A stretch of DNA of 15,853 bases from the IMG/VR virus record IMGVR_UViG_2693429700_000007. One strand, given 5' to 3'. The DNA comes from a virus. Its lineage: Duplodnaviria; Heunggongvirae; Uroviricota; Caudoviricetes. A program made the position numbers and the translations under genes. The notes beneath the pieces were generated by a model that worked only from the letters and a program-made list of their open reading frames with translations, did no database searches and had not been told where the DNA came from. Positions 1,338-15,414 of this stretch are shown here, in pieces (positions within the stretch are counted from its first letter, which is position 1; each line of letters starts with the position of its first letter).

Positions 1338-4300
1338 TGCATAATCCTCCGTCCCGACGTGATGACTGCATAATTGACACAACCCTGCTGTCGATCAGAT
1401 CCACCAGCCCCCTAGCTGACTGCGTATCTATCTCGCCATTGCTCCCTTTATTCTGAATACTGATGTGATACACGGGAGAATAAACAAATCCCCCGCCACC
1501 ATTCACATTGCCAATGGCTCTGACCCCAAGAGAGCCGTCCGCTGCCCGTGTCAGTGGCATGATAGCTTCAGGCCCGGCCTCGCCCATCAGCCCGGCACCT
1601 TTCGCAAAAGCAAAATACGTCGGTGTATCCACAATAGTGTTACTGTAAGCACTCAGATTTGCCGATGTGTAAACACCACCTTTTGCGTTTGCCACTGCAC
1701 CGGAAAGCCAGTCGCCGACCGTACCAAGCCATCCTCCGGCACCGGACATGCTTTTGGAAAGTGACTTCAGCCCGTTAACGATGGCAGCGTTCATCAGAAT
1801 TTTTGAAACTTCCTGGAGGATTGAACTCCCCCAGTTTCGCCAGTCCACAACATTTCCGGCCAGTGCATCGGAAATATTTGATACCAGCCCGTCCATAGTG
1901 GAAACGACAGCATCTGCCGCCTGCGAAGCATAATCGGTGGCACTGTCTGCCCAGTTCGTCAGCCCCTCCTGGAGTCCGGCATTCCAGTCACTGCGTAAAG
2001 CATCAGCCTTTGCATAATAATCCTGCTGATCGCTGAGACGCTCTTCCAGATATTTTTCATTCAGCGATTTTTCCTGTTTCCACAGGGCTTCTTCAATTTC
2101 TCCGGCCTGATACTGTCTCAGCAGCTCGTTATTTTTCTGCTCAAACGCCTGCCGGATACTCCACATTTCCTGGAGTCGTTCACGCATCCGTGAGCCTTCA
2201 CCATATCCCAGCAACTGCGCGTCGTCAGATGCCCGGGCGCTGGCATTACTGTCCGCCAGACTGCTTTCATACGCGGCAAGCTGCTCACGAATCTTTTTCT
2301 GGTCGATGAGTGCCGCATTCTGTAAAAGCGTTTTTTTCTGCGCTTCTGACAGGGTTGATAATTCGCCCTGACTGACCTGATATTTCATCTTAGCCAGTTC
2401 AGTATTCTGACCTGCCAGTGCTATTTGTTCTTTTTGCTGTTTAATCAGCCGTTTATAAATATCTTCTGTTTTTTCCGCTTCGGTCTTTTTATGCGCTTTG
2501 GGTTTATTTGCCTGGTTATTTCGCCAGGCATCCAGTGAGTTATTGATATAATTCTGTCTGGCTGTCTGATACGCCTCTCCCACAAAGCCGAGATCATCCG
2601 CAGCATAACCCAGTCGGGCACGCTCACGGGCTTCCCCCTTCAGGCGGGACAGAGCCAGTTCGCGCTCGCTGTTATTCAGTGCGGTCTGCTGTTTATCATC
2701 CAGGGTGGCCTGTGGCAGCCGTAACGGTACATTCACCAGCCCCTGTCGCTGCTGAAGTAATTCATTACCAAGCCCGAGAAGGCGATTAAACTCGGTATGC
2801 TGCCCATTCATGATCAACATGGACTGATACGCTTTGTTTTGTTCCGCTGCCTGTTGACGGAACAACGCAACCCGCCGCTCCTCCAGCCCGGCAAGCACAT
2901 CCTGAATGGATTGCGCTTTGCCCTGCATTTGAGTGAGGCGAGACTGTTCAACTGCCAGTTGATTTGTTGCTTCTGCAAGCCCTTCTGTGACAGTTTTTAC
3001 CGACGTCATGTGGTTAATCATAAAACCGTTATCGGTTGTCCAGCCCGGGTTTGCCAGCACATACTGATAGCCAGCAATTTTTTCCTGTAAGGATTTAATC
3101 TTACTTTTCTGCTCGTCAATTAACCTGTTCTGCTCCTTCAGTGCCTGCCGCGTCTTTTCCTCATTATCTGACGCTTCAGGAAGCGACATTGCCGACGTTT
3201 TCTGGCGAATTTCGTCGATTGTTGCGGCATACTGGCGTGCAGATTCTCTGGCCTGCTCCTGATTCTGATACATCGTGTACCAGGCCGTCGCCCCCAGCAT
3301 GACGAGTCCCGGCACACCACCAACCAAACCCAGCGCACCACTTAACAGACGACTCCCCACTGACGTGACAGTATTCAGCGTTGTCTGTGCCGCTGTTCTG
3401 GCCGTAATATTACGGGTAAGTGACGCCTGGGCAGCTGTCAGCTTCGCTTCTGCGGCTGCCTGCCTTTCGGTACCGCGAGCAGCAACAACCGCCTGTTGCG
3501 CACGATAAACCGCCGCACGCGCCCTGGCGGTTGCTATCTGTGTCCCCCGAAGTTGCGCTTCAGCAAGAGCCACTTCGTTTCTGGCTGCAGTAATTAATCC
3601 GGCAGTTGCAGATCCAGCAGAAGACGCCATATTGCCAAAATATCGGGCTACCCCGACGGCAACCAGAGCACCGGCAGCGGTTGCCACAGTGTCAATATTG
3701 CCTGCAATACCATTCAGCACACCAGAGAGCGTCTTTGTCACTCCGCTTGCCTCGTTCGCACCACCAACCCAGGCCATAAAGGCGTTTTCAACTTTGGTTG
3801 CAGAGGATGAAACCGTATCAGGCATTGCTGCATATTCATCACGCAACGCCCCAAGCTGACTAATCAGTGCAGGGACAACCTTATCGGCAGTCAGTTTTCC
3901 GTTATCCGCCATGGCCTTCAGATCCTTACGGGCAACACCCATTCCCGCAGCCAGCGCACGAATAACACGATCGCCGTTCTCATTCACAGAGTTAAATTCT
4001 TCACCACGCAGCACTCCCTGCGCCAGTGCCTGACTGAACTGCGTGATCACCGAACTGGCTTCTGCTGTACTGGCACCGGATAATTTCAGGCCCGTGGAGA
4101 TCGCCTCGGTGACTTTCAGTACCTCCTCAGAACTGTAGCCATACTCCCGCATGGAAGCTGCAGAACGGGCAAAAAGGCTGGCGTTATCAGAAAACGCCGT
4201 CCCCGTTCTCTGGCTGATCGCCATTAATTCACGCTGTGATGTCTGAAAATCATCACTGGACTGTGAGGCCTGCTTCAGACGGGCATTTACTGAATTCCAC

Positions 4301-8977: not shown

Positions 8978-9628
8978 TTAGAAGTTCAGATTTTTCAGTG
9001 CATTCAGTGCAGAGCCCACATCCTCAGCGTCGCGCAGGGACAGTGCGCCATAGCCCCCGGCCATGAATGCTTTGGCCTGGGAACGGGAGAGTCCGACATC
9101 ACGCAGGACTCTTTCAATTTTTTTCTGTTCGGGGATTTCCCCGCGGGCCAGTGCGTTCTTGACGTCGCTGATCCGCGCCTCGTCGTTAGACGGGAACGTC
9201 ACCAGGCTGACTTCCCAGAGGTCGATTTCTTTCAGCAGAAAGGCTTCTTTGCTCCGGTCGTATTCCCAATCTTTCAGGACGTACCCAATAGAAAGGCCGG
9301 TTAACGAACCGGCCTTCATGTGTGCATGTGCGCGTTTTGCGAGGGGATCATCATCAATAAGCAACCGTCCCCTGACGTAAAGCCCGACATCGTCTTCCTT
9401 CATTTCGGTGTAAACACCGATGGGTTCATCCATGCGGTGCTGCCAGAGCAGCGCAGGTAACGCTTTTCTGTCACTCCACGCCCGCAGGGAAGCAGCAAAT
9501 GCCCCGGACATCACCACATCATCGTGACTGTCCTTTACACCAAAGACGGAGCCATACCCTTCAAACTCACCTGAGTCACTGACAGATTTCAGACTCAGCG
9601 GTACATCAAGACGTTGTTTCGTCTGCAT
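8978..9628 (-). CDS. Prohead maturation protease, HK97 family
   Basis: Contains …SVFGVKDSHDDVVMSGAF… and …GLSIGY…, consistent with the His/Ser catalytic residues of HK97-type prohead proteases. Preferred start is ATG at 9628 with an AAGGA Shine-Dalgarno; the first ATG at 9664 has none. The gene overlaps the 3' end of the portal gene. Confidence 0.75.
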   Translation of the reverse strand: MQTKQRLDVPLSLKSVSDSGEFEGYGSVFGVKDSHDDVVMSGAFAASLRAWSDRKALPALLWQHRMDEPIGVYTEMKEDDVGLYVRGRLLIDDDPLAKRAHAHMKAGSLTGLSIGYVLKDWEYDRSKEAFLLKEIDLWEVSLVTFPSNDEARISDVKNALARGEIPEQKKIERVLRDVGLSRSQAKAFMAGGYGALSLRDAEDVGSALNALKNLNF

Positions 9629-10847
9629 TGGCGTTATCCTTCTGCTTACCGGCTTTACTGCCATCGGAGGGTTTCGTGGTCATGTTCATCGGTGTGAGAT
9701 AGACATCCCCACCGGGACGCGGATTCATATCTTCCAGGTCGCGGCAGTCATTGGGAGAGTAAATTCCCCAGTTGATCCCGGTGGCGTAGGCTTCAAAACG
9801 GGACTTCATATCCCCGCGCAGTAACGCCCCGGCGTTAAATTTGGCGTAATAAACGCCCTGCTTACTTTTTCGTACCAGTCCGGTGTTGATCCGCTGTTCG
9901 ATGCGGGTCAGATACGGCACCAGTGAATAGTTGATAAATCCCAGCCCCAGCTCTTCGATATTGTTGAAGGTGGCGCGATCGGTGTTCTGCACCATGTGCA
10001 ACGGCACCCGGAACAGACGACAGATTTCTTCAAGCTGAAACTTGCGGGTTTCCAGGAACTGGCTGTCCTCAGCGTTCAGCGCCATCGACTTCCAGTCCAG
10101 CCCCATCTCAAGGATCATCGGGCGGTGAGCATTGCCAAGCCCGGTGTGACGCTCCTCAAAATCTTTCTTCAGGCGCTCATAAGCCTGATCCGACAGCGTC
10201 TGTTCTGTACGCAACACACCGGACGTCACCGCACCATTGCTGAACAGTCTGGCCCCGTGCTCTTCGGTCGCTGCTGCCAGCGATATTGCCTCGCGGGCAT
10301 AGGCGACGGGATTCAGTCCCACCAGACCGTCCAGCGTCAGCGTGCGCACATGCCAGATATCTTCCTGGCTCAGTACATCCGTGGAACCGTCCGGGAATGT
10401 AACCTGATAGACCGGCTCCCAGCGACTGTTAAGCTTCGGTACCACACAACCGGGATCGACGGGCAGCAGTTCAGCCACTTCGCCAAATGCTTTCACTTTG
10501 TAGGCGTAAAAGTTTCCCTTCAGGCACAGACAGGTGACCACCAGCTCCCAGAACTCCTGCGGCGTCATATAGCCATTGGGATGCATGGAGATCAGCTTAT
10601 GCAGACGTTCGCCGGTGGCCCTCTGTTTCAGGCTGCCGTTCAGGTGATACAGATTGCAGGGCAACATCCCGACCGACTCTGCCAGCACTCTGACGCAGGA
10701 AAAAACCGCCGTCAGTCGCATGGCTCGCTGACTGCTGATCTGCTTTCCGGTATAGGTGTCGTAAGACAACCCGATGGCATCCGCCAGCTCTGCTGGCGTG
10801 GTCACCGGCGCGTCACTTTTTCGTTGAAATAATCCCGAAAAGAACAC
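9606..10847 (-). CDS. Portal protein (HK97 family)
   Basis: 413-aa ORF lying between terminase large subunit and prohead protease. GTG start at 10847-10845 overlaps the stop of the preceding small ORF (TAGTG). Size and position are typical of HK97-type portals. Confidence 0.8.
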   Translation of the reverse strand: MFFSGLFQRKSDAPVTTPAELADAIGLSYDTYTGKQISSQRAMRLTAVFSCVRVLAESVGMLPCNLYHLNGSLKQRATGERLHKLISMHPNGYMTPQEFWELVVTCLCLKGNFYAYKVKAFGEVAELLPVDPGCVVPKLNSRWEPVYQVTFPDGSTDVLSQEDIWHVRTLTLDGLVGLNPVAYAREAISLAAATEEHGARLFSNGAVTSGVLRTEQTLSDQAYERLKKDFEERHTGLGNAHRPMILEMGLDWKSMALNAEDSQFLETRKFQLEEICRLFRVPLHMVQNTDRATFNNIEELGLGFINYSLVPYLTRIEQRINTGLVRKSKQGVYYAKFNAGALLRGDMKSRFEAYATGINWGIYSPNDCRDLEDMNPRPGGDVYLTPMNMTTKPSDGSKAGKQKDNANADETTS

Positions 10848-11029
10848 TATTTACCTCCGCCGACAGACGGCTGTGTACGGTCGAGATATCGCGCCACCAG
10901 CCACGACCAGAACAGGCACAGCACCCCGGCAACAACAAAACCCGCCGGGGGATAAATCAGCCAGGCACCATACGCCAGCAAAAGCGCACCCAGCACGCCC
11001 ACCAGTGGCGCGAGAATTATCAGAAACAT
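10847..11029 (-). CDS. Small two-TMD membrane protein (60 aa) inserted between terminase large subunit and portal
   Basis: ATG at 11029-11027 with GAGG 7 nt upstream; stop overlaps the portal start. Sequence [60 protein letters not shown] shows two hydrophobic helices and a short polar/charged C-terminal tail. Confidence 0.55.
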
Positions 11030-11040
11030 AATGACCTCGG

Positions 11041-12798
11041 TTAAAGCGAGCGGATGCCCACGCTGACCAGATGTTCAGACAGATCCGGCTCCGGTTCACC
11101 ACCATTGACCAGCATCCGGCTCATCGCTGTAAACATCGCAACAGGGCCGTCGATTTTGGCTTCCGGCGTGGATTTATTCGGGAAGATATTGTCGTTTTTG
11201 TCCGGTTTTACCGTAACGTTAGACATCATCCAGTTCATGACCGGATGATTGCTGTGATGGAAACGTCCGGCATAGACCAGTGATTCCGTTTCCTTCATGG
11301 CCTCTGACAGATTGCGAACCGTCTGCGGAACCTCCACCAGCGGTATCCCTTCTTCAGCCAGTGCCAGGCTGAACTGCATCGCGCTCCACGGGTCAAATCC
11401 CAGTTCCCTGAGGTTTTCACCACCAATCCATTCCAGTAAGTCACTTTTTATCTGAGCATGATCGATAACATCACCATCCGTCAGAATCAGCTTATCCATC
11501 TCCGCCCACTTCCGGTAAAGTTCTGCCTGCTGCCGCGAGCATCGTTCCAGCCGTCCTTCCGGGAGCCAGAATTTAAAATCGGCATGAACATGCCCGTTAT
11601 CCGTTCGCCAGAGTTTTGCCGCCGCACAGATATCAATCTTATGAGCAAGGTCAACGCCGACCCACATGGGATACGTTTTCAGCTCATGTCGTGGGGCAAT
11701 GTATTCGCATTTCTCCCACTTAATCATGTCCATCCAGGCAGACTCGGCAGTGACCCACACATTCATGTGTTTGGTAAAAAAATTCACCCGCGCTGAAACC
11801 TGTTCCTTCGCTTTTTTCGCCAGACGACGCAGATCATCCCAGCGTTTACAGATGCCCAGGCCCGGATTCGCTTTCTGCCAGACCGTTTCATCAAACGGAT
11901 CATCTCCCTCATCGAGCGTGTAAATAATCGCAAAGTAGGAGTCGTCTTTTACCGCGCCCTCCACGTCACTGTTATAGCCTCGCAATACCTTGATGGCGTA
12001 ATCGCGTTGCTCGTAACAAATCCCTTCCTTGTTAAAGCCCGCCGTGGTGATACCAAATAACAGGGACTGCAGACGGGCACCGGTTGCCGTTTCCAGAACG
12101 TCCCACACGTCGCGGGTTTTATGTGCATGCAGCTCATCAATAATGGCGCAGTGGATGTTCAGACCGTCCAGGTTGTTTGCATCCGAGGAAAGCGGTTCAA
12201 ATTTTGATGCGCTCTGCTCCTGGTAAATCGCCAGCTTGTTGAAATCAAACAACCGCCCGAGTGTCGACCGGGCTTTTCTGACCATATTTTTGGCGTCTTC
12301 AAACACGATTCTGGCCTGGTCACGCGTGGTTGCGGCTGAATACACCTCAGCACCGCCTTCACCATCTGCCCCCGTCATATAAAGACCGATACCCGATGAC
12401 AGGGTTGATTTTGCGTTTTTACGGGCGACTTCGTTGTACGCCGTCCGGAACCGGCGCACCATCACCGGGCGTCCGCTGCCATCGCTGCGCATGACAACTT
12501 CCCCGGTCTCTTCATTCACCAGCGGAATGACAAAACCAAAAATATTAATGAGGATAAATACATGCCAGTCCATCAACTCAATGGGCTGGCCTGCCAGCGC
12601 CCCTTTTACATGAGGCACAAATTTATAGAAATTCAGGATGTGTTGTGCACGGGGTTCACTGAAATAAATCCCCCGCTCTTCGCCGTACTTCAGATCATCA
12701 AGAAAACGCTGGCAGGCCAGACGGACAAATTCGCCAGCGACAATTTCTCCTGCAACAACACGTTCGGCGTAGCGGATCCCGTCAGCCACTTTTGCCAT
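11041..12798 (-). CDS. Terminase large subunit
   Basis: 585-aa ORF, ATG at 12798-12796 overlapping the small-subunit stop (ATGA). Size, position upstream of portal and overall sequence character fit a terminase ATPase/nuclease. Confidence 0.85.
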
Positions 12799-13280
12799 CA
12801 GTCTCTCGCTTTTAAAAGCTCCGCCAGCGGATCAACATCATCCGGTCCGGTGGTATTTACTTTCGCCCGGCTTGCCGGTGACATACCAAACTCTGCAAGC
12901 ATCGCCCGGATCCGCTTCCAGGCATCCGCTTTCATTGCCGCCGCGGGGTGCGCCTTAATCAGTACATCACCACTCTGCGTTTCCGTGCGATAGGTATACC
13001 CCTCAACATCCAGTGTTTCGCAGTGATGCCGATATTCGGTGTAGGCTTCCACCAGTAACTCGAGCGCACGCGCATCAAGCTGAGAAATGATCCCTTCCGC
13101 ATTCAGCTCTTCCGCCATTCGCCTGAACCAGTACTTCCCCTGTGCCCCTAAATGCTGCGGAATTTTAGGAAGACCTTTTTCATCCTTTTTAGCGGTTTTT
13201 TTGGGGTCTTTAACGGGGCGCTTTGAGGGGTTGCCTCGTATCAAATGCAGGCGTGGCGGGGTTTTCGGGGGTCCTGACAT
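12798..13280 (-). CDS. Terminase small subunit (P27-like family)
   Basis: 160-aa ORF, ATG at 13280-13278. Basic N-terminus MSGPPKTPPRLHLIRGNPSKRPVKDPKK... is typical of P27/HK97 gp1-type small terminase subunits. Lies immediately upstream of the large subunit. Confidence 0.75.
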   Translation of the reverse strand: MSGPPKTPPRLHLIRGNPSKRPVKDPKKTAKKDEKGLPKIPQHLGAQGKYWFRRMAEELNAEGIISQLDARALELLVEAYTEYRHHCETLDVEGYTYRTETQSGDVLIKAHPAAAMKADAWKRIRAMLAEFGMSPASRAKVNTTGPDDVDPLAELLKARD

Positions 13281-13426: not shown

Positions 13427-13777
13427 TCAGTTGATGCGTTCGCGCGCTGTTTTTGCTTTATGGCAGGACCAGCACAGACTCTGCAGGTTACTGTCTGCAT
13501 CCGTGCCACCATGAGCTTTCGGAATGATGTGGTCCACAGTTCTGGCTTCAACGGCTCTCCCATTGCGCAGGCAGTTCTGACACAGATGATTATCACGCTT
13601 CAGTATGCGCGCACGTATGGTATCCCATTTCGAACCATATCCACGCTGGTGGCGGCTCAGTCCGCGTTGATGCTGTACCCATCCTTCGCCACGATGTGTA
13701 TCACAGTAACCAGAACTGTCTGTGGTTGTATCTGCACATCCACGCTTACGACAGGCGCGTGGGATTCGTGATGGCAT
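13427..13777 (-). CDS. HNH endonuclease (terminase-associated, HK97 gp74-like)
   Basis: 116-aa ORF, ATG at 13777-13775. Cys-rich with a clear HNH motif: …VDHIIPKAHGGTDADSNLQSLCWSCHKAK…. Its position directly upstream of cos and terS matches the HNH proteins that assist HK97-type terminases. Confidence 0.85.
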   Translation of the reverse strand: MPSRIPRACRKRGCADTTTDSSGYCDTHRGEGWVQHQRGLSRHQRGYGSKWDTIRARILKRDNHLCQNCLRNGRAVEARTVDHIIPKAHGGTDADSNLQSLCWSCHKAKTARERIN

Positions 13778-14119: not shown

Positions 14120-14584
14120 CTACTTAATGCACTGATCGCGGATATATTCCTGCAATCCCCTGATCATTTTTTCGCTGGTTGCAGCTCGCTCTCTGAGGAT
14201 GAAATAATCCCGTTGAGCGGAGTCAGTAAGTCCGGGGCTGGCTGCATCATCCACGCCGGAGGAGGCGGTGGCTTCACGCACGGCTGGACAGACTGCTCTG
14301 ATGCGCAACCGACGACGACCAGCGGCAATATCATCACGCAGAGCATCATTTTCAGCTTTCGCATCAGCTAATTCCTTTGAATATTTTGCATCGAGTGCAG
14401 CAACGTCACGCTGGCGCACCTGCATATCAGTAATGATCGCCTCTGCCAGTTTCAGCTCTCTGGCATTGTCATCGCGTTGTGTTTTGTAGGTAATGGCGTT
14501 ATCGCGGTAATGCTCTGTTGCCAGCCACAGAGCACTACAGACCATCAGCAGGACAATAATCACGCCATACAGAATTCGGTTCAT
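14120..14584 (-). CDS. Rz: i-spanin Rz
   Basis: Start ATG at 14584-14582 (MNRILYGVIIVLLMVCSALWLATEHYRDNAITYKTQRDDNARELKLAEAIITDMQ...), 1 nt after the upstream ORF stop (TGAAATG), with GGTGG Shine-Dalgarno. Closely resembles lambda Rz from memory, with an N-terminal TMD and coiled-coil periplasmic domain. The track ORF extends 17 codons further upstream, which I judge spurious. Confidence 0.85.
   Translation of the reverse strand: MNRILYGVIIVLLMVCSALWLATEHYRDNAITYKTQRDDNARELKLAEAIITDMQVRQRDVAALDAKYSKELADAKAENDALRDDIAAGRRRLRIRAVCPAVREATASSGVDDAASPGLTDSAQRDYFILRERAATSEKMIRGLQEYIRDQCIK
14164..14364 (-). CDS. Rz1: o-spanin Rz1 (lipoprotein, embedded in the +1 frame of Rz)
   Basis: MRKLKMMLCVMILPLVVVGCASEQSVQPCVKPPPPPAWMMQPAPDLLTPLNGIISS... 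has a lipobox (LVVVGC) and a Pro-rich stretch, and closely resembles lambda Rz1 from memory. Entirely nested within Rz. Confidence 0.85.
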   Translation of the reverse strand: MRKLKMMLCVMILPLVVVGCASEQSVQPCVKPPPPPAWMMQPAPDLLTPLNGIISSSESELQPAKK

Positions 14585-14585
14585 T

Positions 14586-14723
14586 TCACCACCAGCGTAT
14601 CTGACCGATGAAATAACCGGAGCCCATAACCACAAACACCAGCCAGATAAGGATGAACTTCCAGATGGATAATTTTTCAGCCATCACTCGAATCTCCAGA
14701 ATCAGTTTGCTAAAATCAAACAC
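14586..14723 (-). CDS. Small single-TMD membrane protein (45 aa from GTG; 32 aa if from the internal ATG at 14684) between the endolysin and Rz
   Basis: GTG at 14723-14721 with a strong AAAGGAGAAAAC Shine-Dalgarno. Translation MFDFSKLILEIRVMAEKLSIWKFILIWLVFVVMGSGYFIGQIRWW* has one hydrophobic helix, and its stop is 1 nt from the Rz ATG. The track's 64-aa version would run through the upstream hairpin and is less likely. Confidence 0.5.
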   Translation of the reverse strand: MFDFSKLILEIRVMAEKLSIWKFILIWLVFVVMGSGYFIGQIRWW

Positions 14724-14880: not shown

Positions 14881-15414
14881 TTATCTGTCGATCCCCCAGC
14901 ACACCAGCGCACTCTCCTGGTCACGACGAATAACCTGACCGTAACAGTTATTTGAACGAATGCGGCAATCACGGCCACCGTCCTTAATCCACCAGCGAAT
15001 CGCCTCGCATGCGCCTTTGCGATCACCGGCATTCAGCCGCTTATAAAACGTCGACGGGAAACACTTACCGGGGCCAATGTTATAGGGACAAAATGACGCA
15101 ATACCTGCTTTTTGTGGTTCGGTCAGTGGTACTTTTATATTGCGATCCACCCATGCCAGCGCCTTATCACGTTCAATAGCGTTAACCTGGTCGCATTTTT
15201 CCTTCGACAGCTTCATTCCCGGTATGACGGGCTTACCATCCACCATTGTGGCACCACGACAGATGGTCCATATGCCAGAACCATCACGGTATGCCGTTGT
15301 GTGGTTACCTTCTTTTTCATCCAGAAACTGGTCAAGTATTTGAGGAGCAGACGCGCCTGCAGCAATCAGCGCCAGAACGGCAGCTGACAGGCCGTATTTG
15401 ATTTTTGCGTTCAT
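14881..15414 (-). CDS. R: Endolysin, T4-lysozyme-like (GH24), probable SAR (signal-anchor-release) type
   Basis: 177-aa ORF, ATG at 15414-15412. Catalytic spacing E-x8-D-x5-T is present (EGNHTTAYRDGSGIWT). The N-terminus YGLSAAVLALIAAGASAPQIL is a weakly hydrophobic Gly/Ala-rich segment typical of SAR domains. It resembles phage 21 R and E. coli prophage Rrr-type lysozymes from memory. No clear Shine-Dalgarno. Confidence 0.85.
   Translation of the reverse strand: MNAKIKYGLSAAVLALIAAGASAPQILDQFLDEKEGNHTTAYRDGSGIWTICRGATMVDGKPVIPGMKLSKEKCDQVNAIERDKALAWVDRNIKVPLTEPQKAGIASFCPYNIGPGKCFPSTFYKRLNAGDRKGACEAIRWWIKDGGRDCRIRSNNCYGQVIRRDQESALVCWGIDR

Follow-up and report, generated by a model that had tools for sequence, protein, structure and literature searches.

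The stretch of DNA analysed here, referred to as the window, comprises 15,853 nucleotides (nt) of a Caudoviricetes virus (IMG/VR record IMGVR_UViG_2693429700_000007). All genes of the window are encoded on the minus strand. Between the gene of the large terminase subunit (terL) and the gene of an HK97-fold portal protein lies a small open reading frame (ORF) of 60 codons, and beyond the portal gene follow the genes of the prohead protease and then of the major capsid protein (Table 1). An earlier, sequence-only reading of this DNA had located the small ORF between terL and an HK97-fold portal gene, which is confirmed by the matches of both neighbours to PHROGs families, and had regarded it as a gene inserted at a junction where terL is normally followed directly by the portal gene. 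A class II holin or pinholin had been proposed as its product, or else a moron acting at the membrane, for instance in superinfection exclusion. From the data described below we conclude that the small ORF is almost certainly a genuine late gene, coding for a small inner-membrane hairpin, whose translation immediately precedes that of the portal and which belongs, as a fixed component inherited vertically along with it, to the terL-portal head module of the P27 and SfV types.

The terL gene ends with the stop codon TAA at 11043-11041, and the spacer between this codon and the ATG of the small ORF contains a Shine-Dalgarno (SD) sequence, as had been read before. At the other end of the ORF, the stop codon TAG (10849-10847) has base 10847 in common with the start codon GTG of the portal gene, in agreement with the overlap seen earlier. 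The identical one-base overlap is annotated by the Prokaryotic Genome Annotation Pipeline (PGAP) as well as in the SfII and P27 records. Residues 1-46 of the encoded protein are uncharged, and the only charged residues (R47, D50, R51 and K60) are located in the tail. The Kyte-Doolittle profile shows two hydrophobic stretches with the sequence YPPAG (residues 26-30) between them. An AlphaFold2 model, based on an alignment of 24 sequences, contains helices at residues 2-25 and 27-52 with a mean predicted local distance difference test (pLDDT) score of 74.5. Hydropathy and model both agree with the description of a 60-amino-acid protein with two transmembrane domains (TMDs) and a charged tail that had been given from the letters alone. 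In the family alignment the C-terminal tail is the most variable part, apart from the terminal Gly-Gly.

The topology of the protein is predicted to be N-in/C-in, since under the positive-inside rule the confinement of the charges to the C-terminal tail and an extra Arg-rich N-terminal extension in the alphaproteobacterial versions place both ends in the cytoplasm. Only the five-residue YPPAG turn would then face the periplasm. With both termini predicted to be cytoplasmic, they would be in the same compartment as portals and proheads.

Table 1. Features of the small ORF, its neighbours and the lysis genes in the window
Feature	Position	Strand	Basis or remark
Small membrane protein gene (phrog_502; orthologue of phiP27 L37, SfII_03 and ST64B Sb3)	10847..11029	-	ORF list and translation; 60 amino acids, ATG start
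SD sequence GAGG of the small ORF	11035..11038	-	5 nt ahead of the ATG at 11029; inside the 11-nt terL/ORF spacer
Predicted transmembrane helix 1, codons 2-25	10955..11026	-	Kyte-Doolittle 19-residue means up to 2.7; AlphaFold2 helix 2-25
YPPAG turn, codons 26-30; centre of the most conserved motif of the family	10940..10954	-	Invariant or near-invariant alignment columns
Predicted transmembrane helix 2, codons 31-46	10892..10939	-	Hydropathy; AlphaFold2 helix 27-52
Variable, weakly basic C-terminal tail, codons 47-60, predicted cytoplasmic	10850..10891	-	Sole charged residues located here
Portal SD sequence GGAGG, encoded by Gly codons 58-59 of the small ORF	10854..10858	-	6 nt ahead of the portal GTG
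TAGTG stop/start overlap of small ORF and portal gene, one shared base	10845..10849	-	Read from the sequence
Portal protein gene, HK97 fold, P27 type	9606..10847	-	phrog_12, E = 7e-145
Terminase large subunit gene (terL)	11041..12798	-	phrog_9, E = 5e-190
Rz gene	14120-14635	-	Separated from the endolysin gene by ~245 nt of unassigned sequence
Endolysin gene	14881-15414	-	Rz, HNH, terS and terL genes between endolysin gene and small ORF
YdfR-like gene, truncated to 79 codons	15478..15717	-	Upstream of the endolysin gene

The window protein matches the family phrog_502 ("membrane protein") with E = 1.6e-27, residues 1-55 aligning with positions 3-57 of the 58 profile positions. It shows the features of this family, namely a length of ~60 amino acids, two hydrophobic helices, the YPPAG turn and the conserved core motif of 12 residues. 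In a large protein collection we found 163 clusters at 90% identity, nearly all of ~60 amino acids, from Escherichia, Shigella, Salmonella, Citrobacter, Klebsiella, Enterobacter, Yersinia and Hafnia. Pairwise comparisons with the window copy by the Nei-Gojobori method gave ratios of nonsynonymous to synonymous substitution rates (dN/dS) of 0.2-0.6 for the ORF, with values of 0.24-0.32 at dS ~1, and the variable sites are distributed over codon positions 1/2/3 of its frame as 33/21/45. Judged by these substitution patterns, the peptide encoded by the ORF is under purifying selection. A chance ORF, as well as the antisense ORF at 10873..11031 on the plus strand, is ruled out by the codon-position pattern, dN/dS and the size of the family. 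The gene is not new, having been annotated since the phiP27 record and catalogued as phrog_502.

Using megablast against phage genomes, we found the whole terL-ORF-portal stretch to be 97-98% identical in vB_EcoM-606R7 and in the Stx phage phi467; the same stretch of the E. coli prophage NZ_CP099721 shows ~96-97% DNA identity to the window. The ORF and portal alone are 96-97% identical in SfI, SfII, SfIV, ST64B and 118970_sal3 and 84% identical in phiP27, and the terL part of the window matches another set of phages than the ORF and portal part. The proteins L37 of phiP27, SfII_03, Sb3 of ST64B and WP_000478567 of E. coli have 90-98% amino-acid identity to the window protein, the same length of 60 amino acids, the same location between terL and portal and the one-base overlap with the portal gene. 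The window ORF does not differ from them in any point of substance and is another copy of this gene.

The names given to the gene vary among these relatives. It appears as the "putative integral membrane protein" L37 in phiP27, as SfII_03 in SfII and as "hypothetical protein" in phi467 and in the RefSeq entry of E. coli, and the homologue has been left unannotated in SfIV (KC814930 2376-2483), in SfV and, in the terL-portal gap, in Yersinia phage PY54 (AJ564013 2302-2491). In the GenBank records ON470580, ON470584, ON470603 and PQ793804 the small protein is labelled "head-tail joining protein W". On sequence grounds this label is probably positional and wrong; an identity with lambda W was rejected, with an hhalign probability of 0.7% and no match to a head-tail family of PHROGs. 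An E. coli/Shigella-type ORF and portal with 92-95% identity also occur on a metagenome-assembled genome (MAG) contig assigned to a "Bacillota bacterium" and in OR844959 ("Enterococcus phage Efm 3-10", 1764 bp), which looks like contamination or mis-binning and not like a Gram-positive host.

For a survey of the junction, loci were picked by the similarity of their portal only, blind to the ORF. Of the 80 IMG/VR loci whose portals are most similar to that of the window (P27 type), 76 carry a profile-positive ORF that ends exactly at the portal start, and two further loci of high GC content, whose portals are ~60% identical, have a divergent ORF with two TMDs that extends one base into the ATG of the portal gene. 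The other two loci were excluded as uninformative because their upstream sequence is missing, and the small ORF is therefore present in 78/78 informative loci. With portals of the SfV type, 68/80 loci exceeded an automatic hydropathy threshold, and each of the four inspected loci that fell below it carries the ORF as well. With portals of the HK97 type, a transmembrane ORF between terL and portal was found in 0/80 loci, and in HK97 itself terL and portal abut. The expectation of a terL gene followed directly by the portal gene thus describes the HK97 lineage correctly and fails for the P27 and SfV lineages. In the latter, by the evidence of these loci, the small ORF is the rule and not an insertion.

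The genome of SfV (NC_003444) contains at 2289..2450 an unannotated ORF of 53 amino acids with two TMDs, MKSLIADVIGLAGFGLLTCGVYLQFGMAPALILSGALLLVGALAMARRGTRAA, which matches the family profile with E = 5.8e-7 and whose ATG overlaps the terL stop codon. The annotated start of the SfV portal, GTG 2392, lies inside this small ORF in another frame, and GTG 2440 fits the conserved N-terminus of the portal better. It has been reported in the SfIV paper that the terL of SfV is >90% identical to terL of SfII and SfIV. The portal of SfV differs from the SfII/SfIV portal.

The same block of ORF and portal is preceded by a terL that is either ~99% or ~36% identical to that of the window at the amino acid level. 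Since one ORF-portal block follows two unrelated types of terL in different phages and prophages, the ORF travels with the portal and not with terL. Sliding identity places the mosaic joint just upstream of the ORF, at ~11030-11100, where the 3' end of terL borders on the ORF. When the region 10700-11029 was compared with phiP27 and a second locus (L092), the DNA coding for the transmembrane part and the first ~150 nt of the portal gene were 90-96% identical, whereas the body of the portal gene reached 63-85%; dS was ~0.09 for the ORF versus 0.76-0.84 for the portal. This patch of high identity could be due to recent recombination or to a constraint at the nucleotide level at the module boundary.

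The junction between ORF and portal reads TGATG, TAATG or TAGTG in nearly all related loci. Stop and start codons overlap by one base, sometimes by four, in loci from Enterobacterales, Pseudaeromonas, Reyranella, Shinella, Rhizobium and Ruminococcaceae MAGs, and purine-rich, SD-like strings are found at the matching place ahead of the portal start. In the family alignment neither G58 nor G59 varies. Because the ribosome-binding site of the portal gene is encoded there, the conserved C-terminal Gly-Gly-(Asp/Glu/Lys) is largely a nucleotide constraint. Going by the junction sequences, small ORF and portal have long been coupled in translation.

When 1.84 billion representatives were searched with a profile, 397 matches were obtained at E <= 1e-3, 28 of them at E <= 1e-10, corresponding to a family of at least 397 clusters at 50% identity. 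All of the 150 matches listed have <=122 amino acids and share a common core motif; a fusion of the transmembrane hairpin to a portal protein was sought and not found among them. A motif scan with one genome per species yielded 36 loci, whose hosts are Enterobacterales, Pseudaeromonas, Lysobacterales, Alphaproteobacteria (Reyranella, Shinella and Rhizobium) and Ruminococcaceae MAGs. Relatives in Alphaproteobacteria, Aeromonadales and Ruminococcaceae MAGs retain the arrangement terL, small ORF, portal. A terL homologue lies upstream in 25 and a portal homologue downstream in 32 of these loci, the order is never reversed, and most of the remaining loci without terL or portal are contig-end cuts or remnants. 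In a six-frame profile search each locus yielded a single family member, without exception at the terL/portal junction. Overall, the location between terL and portal is kept in the 36 genome loci, the 78 viral loci and 5 distant members. The neighbours of two weak profile matches (P0211 and P0148) carry the Pfam domains TerL_ATPase/TerL_nuclease and Phage_portal.

In distant loci from Alphaproteobacteria and Ruminococcaceae the core motif is conserved, 9-14 of the 15-23 identical residues are encoded by different codons, and the differences are concentrated at third codon positions. Hence, selection acts on the peptide. Some high-GC relatives carry tandem-duplicated hairpins of 102-122 amino acids (P0159, P0174 and P0180; loci L286 and L287), and in P0159 and P0174 a portal homologue is located directly downstream. 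In full-text searches of the literature, no study of what this ORF does was retrieved. How widely the family extends, how strictly it is linked and coupled to particular portal lineages in different phyla, and that it is missing from the HK97 lineage appear to be undescribed in the literature searched.

The explanation we prefer, and hold only tentatively, is that the late inner-membrane hairpin is made in step with the portal and acts in portal or prohead assembly. The small ORF lies in a late operon without a usable promoter of its own and is translated just ahead of its cognate portal. The hairpin would be inserted into the inner membrane such that its two ends face the cytoplasm, and it would cooperate with the cognate portal early in the assembly of the head. 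It may tether or nucleate the portal ring at the membrane or, alternatively, bring the translating mRNA of the head genes to the membrane. Co-inheritance and translational coupling are only suggestive of such a role. A membrane step in portal assembly has a precedent, since the head of T4 is assembled on the inner membrane, where a "connector chaperon protein" anchors it (PMC3185693).

Several observations weigh against a role in assembly. Any contact between hairpin and portal is hypothetical, and simple linkage would give the same adjacency and co-inheritance. HK97 does without the gene, and its portal is 31% identical to that of the window, a similarity like that of the SfV or Ruminococcaceae portals. 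Therefore, the small protein is not generally needed for the assembly of HK97-fold heads. The dN/dS of the ORF is several-fold above that of the adjoining portal (0.2-0.6 versus 0.04-0.1). Moreover, we found no homology to a characterised assembly factor in Pfam, NCBIfam, PDB or Foldseek searches. The window protein and nine diverse family members gave no significant match in Pfam and NCBIfam, a PDB sequence search with the family profile gave zero matches, and Foldseek with the AlphaFold2 model against PDB returned only hairpins of V-ATPase subunit e at E ~7, which is uninformative for a hairpin of 60 residues. Finally, there is one exception to the synteny, a locus (534-2553) of the alphaproteobacterial MAG contig JBGOXX010000014 that carries a family member without detectable terL or portal. 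The order in this locus is a fragment of a replication initiator, the family member, two ORFs and an HK97-type prohead protease, and it could be a satellite-like or decayed element.

An accessory membrane protein, serving superinfection exclusion or another function at the host membrane, might instead have become fixed at the module boundary, so that its position beside the portal reflects linkage only. We consider this unlikely, and of the other explanations it is the one that fits best. PHROGs places phrog_502 in the category "moron, auxiliary metabolic gene and host takeover", the HK97 lineage manages without the gene, the ORF sits exactly at a mosaic joint and its constraint is weaker than that on the portal. 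There is also a precedent in gp15 of HK97, which is said to be a membrane protein encoded by a moron inside the structural operon and to block the entry of DNA. Morons have their own promoter and terminator and occur sporadically. Our promoter scan yielded a single sigma-70-like match, whose -10 hexamer is located within the ORF, and no usable promoter; in a terminator scan no minus-strand terminator was found at either end of the ORF. A terminator is annotated inside SfII_03; the scan likewise detected no minus-strand terminator within the ORF. With a spacer of 11 nt on one side and an overlap of one base on the other, and with its presence in essentially all loci of two portal lineages, the ORF does not behave as the moron that had been suggested. 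Phages whose hosts differ greatly in their envelopes retain the same motif, and only ~5 residues are predicted to be exposed to the periplasm. The defence models of PADLOC were matched neither by the window protein nor by its alphaproteobacterial and SfV forms. The GC content of the ORF is 59% and that of the window 52%, a value which a peptide rich in Gly, Ala, Pro, Trp and Leu would give alone. For ST64B, a transcriptome paper shows no more than that the prophage is globally derepressed when dam is mutated.

The ORF might also serve as a leader for translational coupling, which supplies the portal start with ribosomes and sets the level of the portal or brings the mRNA to the membrane and whose peptide has little or no function afterwards. 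The portal SD sequence within the last Gly codons and the almost universal one-base overlap would fit such a leader, and the low dS of the ORF in the comparisons with phiP27 and L092 hints at nucleotide-level constraint or exchange. A mere leader would not be expected to retain a specific motif and two helices from phylum to phylum although the codons differ, or to persist in tandem-duplicated form, and HK97 couples terL directly to the portal without a small ORF. We therefore regard a leader function as improbable.

With respect to lysis, it had been argued that no holin is visible in the window. The sequence from ~15717 to the end of the window (15853) matches the end of an IS3-family (IS1203-like) element, which other E. 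coli prophages carry in this position too, and in intact relatives a class II holin gene lies just beyond YdfR. The absence of a holin is thus an effect of the window edge, because the insertion at ~15717 puts the holin position outside it. Both phi467 and the E. coli prophage NZ_CP099721 carry the 60-amino-acid ORF together with a canonical class II holin, YdfR, lysozyme and Rz, and for SfIV a cassette of holin, lysin, Rz and Rz1 has been described in the SfIV paper. The small ORF is ~4 kb away from the lysis cassette and in relatives is always tied to the portal. The window protein has no match to the holin families in Pfam, PHROGs and NCBIfam, and hhalign gave a probability of 9% against the class II holin of a related prophage. 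Its N-terminus MFLI (MIML in relatives) has no basic residue between Met codons and hence no dual start of the Met-Lys-Met type, and TMD1, with a mean Kyte-Doolittle value of 2.7, is strongly hydrophobic and does not resemble a signal-anchor-release (SAR) domain. A lysis-related hairpin acting in permeabilisation or lysis timing, be it a class II holin, a pinholin or an antiholin-like protein, is consequently very improbable, despite the small size, the two TMDs, the predicted N-in/C-in topology, the basic tail and the late expression.

Two further observations concern this side of the window. The N-terminus of the endolysin, MNAKIKYGLSAAVLALIAAGASAPQILDQ, is hydrophobic and resembles a SAR domain of the R type of Stx phages. 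A gene of an HNH endonuclease (13427-13777) lies just upstream of the gene of a P27-family small terminase (12798-13280), an arrangement typical of HK97-like cos packaging modules.

The probability that remains beyond the assembly role and the three other explanations belongs to something else. The sequence-only reading had named orthologues found routinely at this junction, with a known structural role, as a finding that would speak against it; the orthologues are routine there, and no structural role is known for them. For the window itself our results are mainly a correction, as the gene is a routine component of the P27-/SfV-type head module. For phage biologists, they bring together a portal-tied hairpin that is found across distant phyla and is often unannotated or mislabelled "W". 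It is possible, if rather doubtful, that this large two-helix membrane family, which spans phyla, has no Pfam model and is coupled to and co-inherited with particular HK97-fold portals, reflects a widespread membrane-associated step in head assembly. If so, such a step (nucleation or tethering of the portal, or targeting of the mRNA) would have been overlooked so far among HK97-like phages, possibly because the gene is by chance missing from HK97, the model phage.

The small protein can be compared with several known systems. With class II holins and pinholins (for example S21 68, and WP_000839572 of the related prophage) it shares its size, two predicted TMDs, a predicted N-in/C-in topology, the basic tail and late expression; unlike them, it is encoded outside the lysis cassette, tied to the portal and beside a canonical holin in relatives, and it has no sequence relationship to them. 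Exclusion morons of the HK97 gp15 type are likewise small membrane proteins of the late structural operon of an HK97-like temperate phage, but the small ORF has no promoter or terminator of its own, is universal in its portal lineages and lacks a PADLOC match. The gene of lambda gpW, a head-tail adaptor of 68 amino acids, is likewise small, lies between terL (A) and portal (B) and has stop and start codons that overlap. However, gpW is charged and soluble and has no hydrophobic helices, whereas the window protein begins with 46 consecutive uncharged, hydrophobic residues. With regard to the preferred role in assembly, a parallel may be drawn to the membrane-bound connector chaperone of T4, which we take to be gp40. 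The T4 factor is not known to be a hairpin of 60 amino acids that is translationally coupled to the portal, and the analogy is a functional one, with no homology claimed. What the two would have in common is the proposed role, in which a membrane protein positions or starts the assembly of portal and head at the inner membrane; the window protein is predicted to be integral to this membrane.

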